DNA of 64,000 nt from an uncultured Clostridia bacterium (GTDB lineage Bacteria > Bacillota > Clostridia > TANB77 > CAG-508), in the NCBI GenBank assembly GCA_948630815.1, contig CAPIEU010000001.1, positions 15,346-79,345 of the forward strand. The letters are read 5' to 3'. Position numbers and translations under genes: made by a program. Numbering within the stretch: position 1 is the stretch's first letter; each line of letters starts with the position of its first letter. A model generated the notes under the pieces. It had not been told where the DNA came from and made no database searches. It saw nothing but the letters and a program-made list of their open reading frames with translations. Of this stretch, positions 1,946 to 2,277 are shown in pieces.

Positions 1946-2277
1946 TTGTTACAGGATAATAGTTTTTATTTTGATAGCAACAAAAGTAATCTTGGAAATC
2001 TACATTTTTAAGCCGCGTAAGCGACCAAACGGAGCGTTAGCGAAGTGCGAATTGGAGCAACCTACATATAAAATGTTATAATTGTAGGTTGCGACACCAA
2101 GGCTTATAAAATGTAGATTGGAAAGATACTTTTCGTTGCTATTTAGGATATATTGTTTGCAATCCGCTCCATCTTGCTGGATGTAGGACATTTTTGTTTT
2201 TCTCTCAGAGTTCGAAAAACAAAAAGTTCTACATCCACGTGTCGCTATTAAAGATTAGTTTAAGATTGAACATTAAC
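1946..2277 (+). repeat. composite intergenic mosaic element: degenerate left TIR, R2 module (1974-2142), R1 hairpin module (about 2150-2255), right TIR agattgaacattaac (2263-2277)
   Basis: The R2 core (2009-2105) recurs reverse-complemented at 17887-17972. The R1 core (2164-2241) recurs at 4099-4176, 32870-32950, 35320-35395, 57395-57475 and 59295-59372. The right end matches the family TIR agactgaacattaac. Confidence 0.8.

Follow-up and report, generated by a model that had tools for sequence, protein, structure and literature searches.

Co-varying arms of the R1 hairpin in an uncultured Clostridia bacterium: very probably the folded core of a family of MITEs

The R1 hairpin, a long palindrome whose arms co-vary between copies, is very probably the folded centre of a non-coding MITE that is present in about 100 copies in the source assembly (G000; 1.73 Mb, 33 contigs, 27% GC). 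The explanation of the whole towards which we lean slightly is that of a MITE core whose arms are kept complementary by fold-selected proliferation together with template switching. R1 shows each of the structural features by which MITEs are recognised, a partner IS being the exception, and belongs to a well-known type of element; it is no new regulatory RNA. The window, i.e., the whole stretch of 64 kb that was analysed, contained six R1 cores according to a covariance model. A search for the 3′ arm followed by CACGTG (≤3 mismatches) returned four matches in the window, compared with 0.00 expected from 100 shuffles. The four copies quoted in an earlier note on this DNA, together with their arm sequences, read exactly as written there. 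Throughout, the R1 + strand is our label for the strand read 5′ to 3′. The copies in the window are as follows.

2135 to 2277, + strand: R1 MITE copy 1, 143 bp; core 2159-2250, including the hairpin as first noted (2164-2241)
4071 to 4214, + strand: R1 MITE copy 2, 144 bp; core 4094-4185
32829 to 32987, − strand: R1 MITE copy 3, element 32837-32979 (143 bp); core 32865-32956
35316 to 35410, + strand: R1 core copy 4, diverged (61.9 bits); terminal inverted repeats not recognisable
57361 to 57503, − strand: R1 MITE copy 5, about 143 bp; core 57389-57480
59267 to 59410, + strand: R1 MITE copy 6, 144 bp, in the mnmE-mnmG spacer; core 59290-59382

On either side of copy 3, at 32829-32836 and 32980-32987, stands a perfect 8-bp target-site duplication, CAAAAATA. 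The terminal repeats of copy 1 are degenerate (GTTGCTATTTAGGA ... GATTGAACATTAAC) and its target duplication has decayed to 3/8 matching positions. Copy 5 has retained an intact 3′ repeat (GTTACAGTTTAAT), and its degenerate 5′ arm reaches into the Shine-Dalgarno region (AAAGGAGCAA) of a + strand gene that starts just downstream. Copy 2 bears a 22-bp perfect direct repeat, TTATTTCTTTCCTAATCTTATT, on both sides (4055-4076 and 4228-4249). The 3′ flank of copy 4 is of the 'TTGAAAATTTGAC' type, as in a minority class, and the 3′ arm of copy 6 belongs to a wobble/bulge class (GGGCTCGTGTTCA). As a side observation, a search for contigs that encode the gene beside copy 1 gave short ones only, which break at the repeats.

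The core of R1 comprises about 90 nt. On the + strand it opens with AATCC and the 5′ arm of an outer stem of 6 bp (P1, GCTYCA/TGRAGC), followed by the internal loop TCTTGC and the variable stem P2 (for example, TGGATGTAG or TGAATGTAG). The 5′ side then continues with a G opposite A, G or U, with G/A-C, a bulged purine and the stem P3 (T4-5 N T4-5 C). A free terminal loop of 8-17 nt leads into the 3′ arms of P3 and P2, the dinucleotide CG, the TGRAGC of P1 and finally TAC-TT. The asymmetric internal loop, TCTTGC opposite CG, is unpaired, nearly invariant and among the most conserved positions. The conserved CACGTG that had been reported to follow the hairpin is explained by this anatomy, since its three dinucleotides belong to different parts of the core: CA closes P2, CG is the shorter (2-nt) side of the internal loop, and TG opens P1. 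P1 itself is disrupted (TGTCGC) in one G000 subfamily, A. A large subfamily with the 3′ arm CTCTCGTTCA has a U.G wobble, a U.U mismatch and a bulged C, and pairing is accordingly imperfect in places; the large class with the 3′ arm CTCTCGTTCA or CTTGCGTCCA represents one inserted base, U.G wobbles and a U.U mismatch and no separate arm. Compared with dinucleotide shuffles, the hairpins folded with z-scores from −4.7 to −6.9 whichever strand was taken, and the + strand folded better than the − strand in 81/107 copies, by a mean of 2.2 kcal/mol. Within the main stem (P2/P3), G.U exceeded A.C both in cells (83 vs. 35) and in distinct events (31 vs. 16).

A profile search with nhmmer yielded 113 matches in G000, 84 of them at ≥60 bits, and the covariance model recovered 98 cores. 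When copies were aligned together with their flanks, conservation reached well past the hairpin and covered about 143 nt from GTTACnnTTCAG to CTGAACnGTAAC. Both ends were recognisable in 27 G000 copies, which define a non-coding, multi-copy element of 140-146 bp. Canonical copies carry terminal inverted repeats of 12-14 bp (GTTACnGTTCAG ... CTGAACnGTAAC), found with ≤3 mismatches in the 27 G000 copies and also in 36/46 metagenome copies; they are degenerate or missing in a minority of copies and in a related genome, G024. The same termini are common to three kinds of element in G000, namely R1 (144-146 bp), a 170-bp family and a 210-bp element, and identical 8-mers are often situated directly outside of them. 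The proposal of the earlier note that R1 might be a transposase or recombinase recognition hairpin holds insofar as the hairpin belongs to a mobile element; the unit, however, is the element of 143 bp and not the hairpin of 78 nt.

Mobility is apparent from the flanks. The flanking 8-mers of the 27 two-ended copies in G000 matched at 4.85/8 positions as compared with 3.01 for shuffled partners (null sd 0.26, maximum 3.77 of 500), and several G000 copies, the window copy 32837-32979 among them, have perfect 8/8 duplications. A two-anchor pattern scan furthermore provided a young and very homogeneous family of 46 metagenome copies with the same ends and core architecture. Both ends were found in 36 of these copies, with lengths of 140-144 bp (exactly 143 in 25/36); perfect 8/8 duplications flank 24/36, and 7/8 positions match in 3 more. 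One site is filled in G019 and empty in G020, the flanks of the two sharing about 90-96% identity; of the 150 nt inserted in G019, 142 nt are the element and the other 8 the target duplication, AAAATATA. Four relatives (G009, G007, G006 and G008) lack the window copy 32837-32979 in their orthologous spacer; about 30 extra nt are present at this locus in G000 too, hence it offers no clean empty site. Within the genus, the number of R1 copies per genome runs from high to low (98, 43, 19, 9, 5, 4, 4, 4, 1...), with zero copies in 13/24 other species. Other families of the order had essentially no R1 copies, and none was present in the viral contigs scanned.

The covariation of the arms is real and arose in multiple events. 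The paired differences that had first drawn attention to R1 are all present (TTTTTGTTTTT/AAAAACAAAAA vs. TTTTTATTTTT/AAAAATAAAAA; GGATG/CATCC vs. GGAGA/TCTCC; GG../..CC vs. AA../..TT). Among 80 copies from G000, scored on a structure that we specified ourselves, 89.2% of cells were paired as compared with 83.8% after shuffling (0/500), and slid-partner controls reached 43-53%. Double-change cells numbered 177 vs. 67.3 in shuffled data (0/500), which bears out the earlier description of a conserved fold with drifting sequence. Changes were also mapped onto a maximum-likelihood tree, for which the 80 copies were compared over the same 92 columns. Both partners of a pair changed on the same branch 38 times, over 16/29 pairs, where 6.8 such cases were expected under independence and re-paired columns gave a mean of 8.8 (sd 2.8, maximum 20 in 2000). 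The signal thus extends beyond two or three lineages. A further 40 diverse copies, drawn from six genomes and metagenomes, in an alignment fitted to the model, had 93% of cells paired, 22/29 pairs with double changes (13.3 in shuffled data, 0/500) and 49 extra pair types (36 in shuffled data, 0/500). In other genomes and metagenomes the P2 stems are almost wholly different, yet complementary (GGATGATGG/CATCATCC, GGAAGTTGG/CAACTTCC; further examples are GGCGGTTGG/CAACCGCC, GTCGGTTAG/TAACCGAC, GAATGTTC/GAACATTC and GGCAATTG/CAATTGCC), and by reading the sequences we counted at least 12 different, fully complementary distal stems across genomes. Although the T-run stem owes its G/A to C/T switch to three subfamilies (A/B/C), the number of same-branch double changes, the variety of distal stems and the surplus of pair types in the diverse copies leave practically no room for the notion, raised in the earlier note as a caveat, that a handful of subfamilies duplicated not long ago could have created the covariation as an artefact. 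Gene conversion between copies is a further process that would shift both arms at once.

Two joint reasons would explain why the arms co-vary. Firstly, only lineages keeping the long asymmetric foldback would go on proliferating, so that selection would operate among master copies, probably on the folded single strand or on the synapsis of the ends. Secondly, template switching from arm to arm at the quasi-palindrome would copy a change in one arm onto the other. We regard a contribution of template switching as likely and one of selection on the fold as slightly more probable than not.

Template switching at quasi-palindromes, whether within a strand or between strands, leaves an established footprint, namely perfected arms and an inverted spacer. 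In the data, 8/39 classifiable copies of the young metagenomic family are perfect-arm alleles, in which the 3′ arm is the exact complement and mismatch and bulge are erased, and inverted loops are confined to these alleles (3/8 vs. 0/31 of the others). One copy in G000 combines an inverted loop with perfect arms, and alleles of the perfect-arm or inverted-loop type occur in G009, G007 and G024 as well. These footprints demonstrate that paired changes can arise without selection. The sentence of the earlier note that compensatory change implies selection was therefore too strong, since template switching also operates. Private changes on terminal branches comprised 57 broken pairs, 50 A.C, 36 G.U and 20 that restore a pair. 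As there is no preference for wobbles, these changes give no evidence of purifying selection after insertion, and in our reading selection acts on which lineages proliferate and not on resident copies. The low rate of change in the A/T stems (P3) may reflect mutational bias in an A/T-biased genome.

All of these footprints, including the lack of a wobble bias in private mutations, would equally be expected if palindromes were maintained neutrally, by replication-associated template switching (quasi-palindrome correction) or arm conversion only, with no selection on the fold and with the hairpin as the inner palindromic part of the MITE. We consider this unlikely, because copying of arms erases the mismatch and the bulge, yet both persist in lineages with unrelated stems: mismatch and bulged purine occupy the same place in the same arm in G000, in G024, in G020/G019 and in metagenomes. 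Perfect-arm alleles keep arising but remain a minority (8 vs. 31). The TCTTGC loop opposite CG is nearly invariant though unpaired, and amplified lineages display the excess of G.U over A.C, which likewise speak against a purely neutral origin.

Not every copy agrees with fold-selected MITE proliferation in a simple manner. G024 contains 20 near-identical cores with sharp bounds of conservation (AATCCGC ... GCTACTT) and unrelated flanks. These cores were found to have no extended complementarity of arms (6.88 vs. a null of 7.04) and no adjacent duplication, and one of the spacers measures 213 nt vs. about 20-55 nt in relatives, a growth that exceeds the core alone. The G024 population is not explained by the plain MITE model. 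It is possible that these are MITEs with fast-decaying arms and a constant core, which would point to selection or conversion on resident cores; it is also possible that the core is carried by several vehicles, or that it is able to move alone. In addition, the filled copy in G019 has termini unlike the canonical R1 repeat, and a minority of the G000 copies have a different 3′ context. On the basis of these copies in G024, G019 and G000, which depart from the canonical ends, one might suppose that the core of about 90 nt is a structure-specific cis element of its own, travelling as cargo in inverted-repeat 'vehicles' or spreading by itself, and that some enzyme recognises it as a folded single strand of one polarity. 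We hold this to be doubtful. If true, R1 would be a two-layer mobile element, with a hairpin parasite nested in MITEs.

The genomic context of R1 was scored on a crude ORF map of G000 (ORFs ≥90 aa, 81% coverage). None of 84 copies was located inside an ORF (0/84), all being intergenic, and many are 20-60 nt away from start codons. With respect to neighbouring genes, 32 copies were oriented ++ and 31 −−, while 14 were situated between divergent and 6 between convergent genes. This lack of orientation bias indicates that R1 has spread neither like a cis-acting RNA of one orientation nor like a ssDNA transposon coupled to the direction of replication. In a search against Rfam 15, the gathering score was reached by tRNAs only and R1 was unmatched; at E ≤ 10, generic miRNA-precursor hairpins appeared alone, as noise far below threshold. 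The earlier note was right that the hairpin is no simple terminator: a T-run follows it on neither strand and R1 copies were unflagged in a terminator scan. A promoter scan gave no promoter-like site on the R1 hairpins. CACGTG as a site related to restriction or methylation was dismissed as well, its 78 occurrences outside R1 (78.6 expected) being neither avoided nor enriched. A small reverse-strand ORF (ATG-GAG-CGG-ATT...) was rejected by reading, its frame not being conserved and a Shine-Dalgarno sequence being absent across genomes.

A function at the level of the host is nevertheless conceivable. The hairpin might be an RNA or DNA site such as an mRNA-stabilising or processing hairpin, an attenuator or a protein-binding site, in other words a domesticated MITE core, which presumes purifying selection after insertion. 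Structured RNAs, too, combine covariation with an unpaired motif that does not vary; the + strand folds better, the G024 cores are about 95-100% alike between unalignable flanks, and the vicinity of many copies to start codons, with one arm overlapping a Shine-Dalgarno site, would suit such a role. However, with orientations equal, half of the copies would be transcribed as the worse-folding strand. Most congeners lack any R1 copy; Rfam family, terminator tail and promoter are all absent, and private mutations break pairs freely, in the numbers given above. We therefore deem a host function improbable. The even orientations, the range from 0 to 98 copies among congeners and the missing Rfam match likewise disfavour the transcribed regulatory RNA that had been suggested earlier.

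Inverted repeats together with a duplication of fixed length (8 bp) are the signature of a DDE-type transposase and not of HUH or ssDNA transposition; HUH/ssDNA transposases leave neither inverted repeats nor a target duplication. R1 elements would thus be expected to be moved in trans by a DDE-type enzyme. A matching transposase or autonomous IS was found neither in G000 nor in relatives (three Pfam families) nor in the fetched metagenome loci, the assemblies being fragmented. The IS66, IS6/IS240 and Y1 families had no member in G000, and no IS6/IS240-type transposase was detected in G009. Two weak IS240 matches in G003 and G004 were discarded, as R1-type repeats are absent there. Proteins with several copies in G000 were large serine recombinases, Mob_Pre (five copies), TnpV and a relaxase. 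Neither at the ends of contigs nor on the small contigs of G000 was there an IS bearing R1 ends, and in G000 and the fetched metagenome loci no pair of repeats enclosed an ORF and was flanked by a target duplication. Repeat pairs 0.7-6 kb apart in G000 and the metagenome loci turned out to be merely adjacent MITEs without target duplication.

The HUH/ssDNA transposases that the earlier note had proposed to search for deserve separate mention, as the core might be a REP/REPIN-like or IS200/IS605-type (PATE) hairpin served by a HUH enzyme (Y1/RAYT), with the inverted-repeat shell being secondary. The core ends in GCTAC, which gives the opposite strand a GTAG at the palindrome foot, a feature shared with REPs; its conserved extrahelical base and mismatch recall the substrates IS608, REP and attC, and the G024 cores are without recognisable inverted repeats or duplications. 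Canonical copies, by contrast, bear inverted repeats and 8-bp duplications, neither of which is a product of HUH transposition. Moreover, Y1_Tnp (PF01797) had no match in G000, the genome with 98 copies. Across 41 genomes (G000 and 40 relatives), Y1 genes did not correlate with R1 copy number and were equally frequent with and without R1, and a model search around Y1 loci found no R1 core within 1.5 kb of them. The orientation bias of ssDNA transposons is also missing, gene direction serving as a proxy for replication. A HUH-driven origin of R1 is hence most improbable.

The identification of R1 as a probable MITE accounts for a prominent repeat found in many spacers of the compact G000 genome and guards against its being misread as a terminator or regulatory RNA. 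For these uncultured gut Clostridia, a group that has hardly been studied, it contributes a well-documented MITE family that includes a young population of active appearance. R1 further offers a clean natural case of two forces on one hairpin, template switching, which perfects the arms, and another force, which keeps bulge and loop. If the latter were a DDE-type system recognising a folded single strand, this would be relevant to the mobilisation of MITEs. Of some interest are the retention of an asymmetric core beneath variable stems, the visible template-switch alleles and the G024 population.

Among known systems, integron attC sites share with R1 the conservation of structure over sequence, extrahelical bases and an unpaired central spacer that are kept, and a variable terminal loop. 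Unlike attC sites, R1 copies occur in both orientations with target duplications. Membership was rejected, given that the R″/R′ core sites (RYYYAAC/GTTRRRY) are absent by reading and that copies are dispersed singly and form no cassette arrays. PATEs derived from IS200/IS605 have subterminal hairpins, insert 3′ of a fixed tetra- or pentanucleotide, show a strand bias and possess neither inverted repeats nor a target duplication. The inverted repeats and duplications of R1 and its lack of orientation bias (32 vs. 31) rule out this class. Like REP/REPIN-RAYT sequences, R1 copies are intergenic, orientation-neutral palindromes with an imperfect stem, a conserved irregularity and compensatory changes, and a GTAG-like tetranucleotide stands at the stem foot on one strand (GCTAC, i.e., GTAGC, is conserved at the 3′ foot). 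In contrast to REPs and REPINs, R1 is about three times longer, A/T-rich, bounded by inverted repeats and 8-bp duplications, and has no Y1 association; repeats, duplications and the absence of an associated Y1 gene exclude it from this group.

The IS6/IS26 family has the terminal repeat consensus GGTTCTGTTGCAAA and creates 8-bp duplications (PMC6807381). In our own comparison, the R1 repeat GTTACTGTTCAG matched this consensus at 8/12 positions, including the conserved C5-T6-G7-T8-T9, and the target duplication of R1 is likewise 8 bp long. The R1 repeat does not, however, start with GG, and an IS6/IS240-type transposase is absent from G000 and G009. IS26-type elements move by formation of cointegrates and are not known to drive bursts of MITEs. 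The resemblance, seen at the level of the repeat sequence, may serve as a lead and makes no claim of membership.

Prokaryotic MITEs that fold into long hairpins include Correia/NEMIS of Neisseria, RUP of Streptococcus pneumoniae and bcr1 of the Bacillus cereus group, and compensated stems are a familiar sight among hairpin-forming MITEs. The sequence of R1, its inverted repeats (GTTACnGTTCAG) and its 8-bp duplication are unrelated to those of Correia, RUP and bcr1; the sites that Correia and bcr1 duplicate are TA or short A/T stretches. Like the three families, R1 is non-coding, falls within 100-200 bp, carries terminal inverted repeats and a target duplication of fixed length, occurs in tens to hundreds of intergenic copies with lineage-specific bursts, folds back as a whole element and is divided into subfamilies. 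General reviews cover prokaryotic MITEs (PMC10969869, PMC3184786). Unlike these families, R1 keeps a core of about 90 nt with an invariant internal loop and bulge while the sequence of its stem turns over, and its ends also carry other interiors, those of the 170-bp and 210-bp families.

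Within the hairpin core of R1, a 140-146-bp MITE, column 8 is a position of frequent change, where the CG of TCCGCT is often converted to give TCCACT or TCTGCT. The pair 8/99 contained 16 unpaired cells among 80 copies, and reading of the alignment rows showed these to be mostly A.C. The changes at column 8 follow a CpG-to-TpG/CpA pattern, which might reflect cytosine methylation at this position.

Two R1 copies of the window displayed peculiar surroundings. R1 copy 2 is flanked on either side by a perfect 22-bp direct repeat, TTATTTCTTTCCTAATCTTATT (window 4055-4076 and 4228-4249), which overlaps the left terminal repeat of the element by 6 nt. 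This repeat far exceeds the 8-bp duplication usual for R1 and may have arisen by local duplication or through a second event at the same site. In R1 copy 5, which is on the minus strand, the 5′ arm is degenerate; at window 57486-57515 it extends into the Shine-Dalgarno sequence AAAGGAGCAA, and about 10 nt separate it from the ATG of the following plus-strand gene. Part of the translation start region of this gene may now derive from R1 copy 5.

The ends of R1 also occur on other elements. A 170-bp family, termed R3, shares with R1 the terminal repeats, the 8-bp duplications and the sub-terminal motifs AATCCGCTCC ... CTACAyTCACG, but its interior differs in sequence and is G+C-richer. The following elements were recorded in the genome containing the window (G000):

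C1:33369-33538, C1:14946-15116, C8:706-875 and others, R3 copies
Window, near 18017-18200, 36709 and 62199, R3 copies
C5:66597-66806, 210-bp element with R1-type ends

Further repeats and inserts were encountered in related genomes. Multi-copy BLAST matches adjoining the R1 locus in the comparison of the filled site of G019 with the empty site of G020 revealed a repeat of about 136 nt distinct from R1 (L003:974-1109 in G019), with dozens of copies in these two genomes (at least 25 places). In the spacer orthologous to window 32829-32987, where G000 carries an R1 MITE, the insert found in G012 is a different one, roughly 60 nt long (C69, approximately 10693-10749) and located between CTAAAATA and TAAAAATA; this spacer seems to be a repeatedly hit site. 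Several G024 copies (L020, L024, L026 and L035) have in common the motif AAAGATTAATAAATCATAAAT, located outside the R1 core about 50 nt to its 3′ side, a possible promoter or additional module.

G000 also contains multi-copy mobile genes. A Mob_Pre relaxase of 473 aa is present in five copies, each adjoined by a TnpV gene. Coordinates recorded for these mobile genes:

C4:2142-3563
C6:91461-92882
C12:40245-41666
C3:145368-146375
C26:7706-8107

Several large serine recombinases were found as well, frequently at contig ends. Together with Mob_Pre and TnpV, they look like a multi-copy mobilisable transposon resembling Tn4451.
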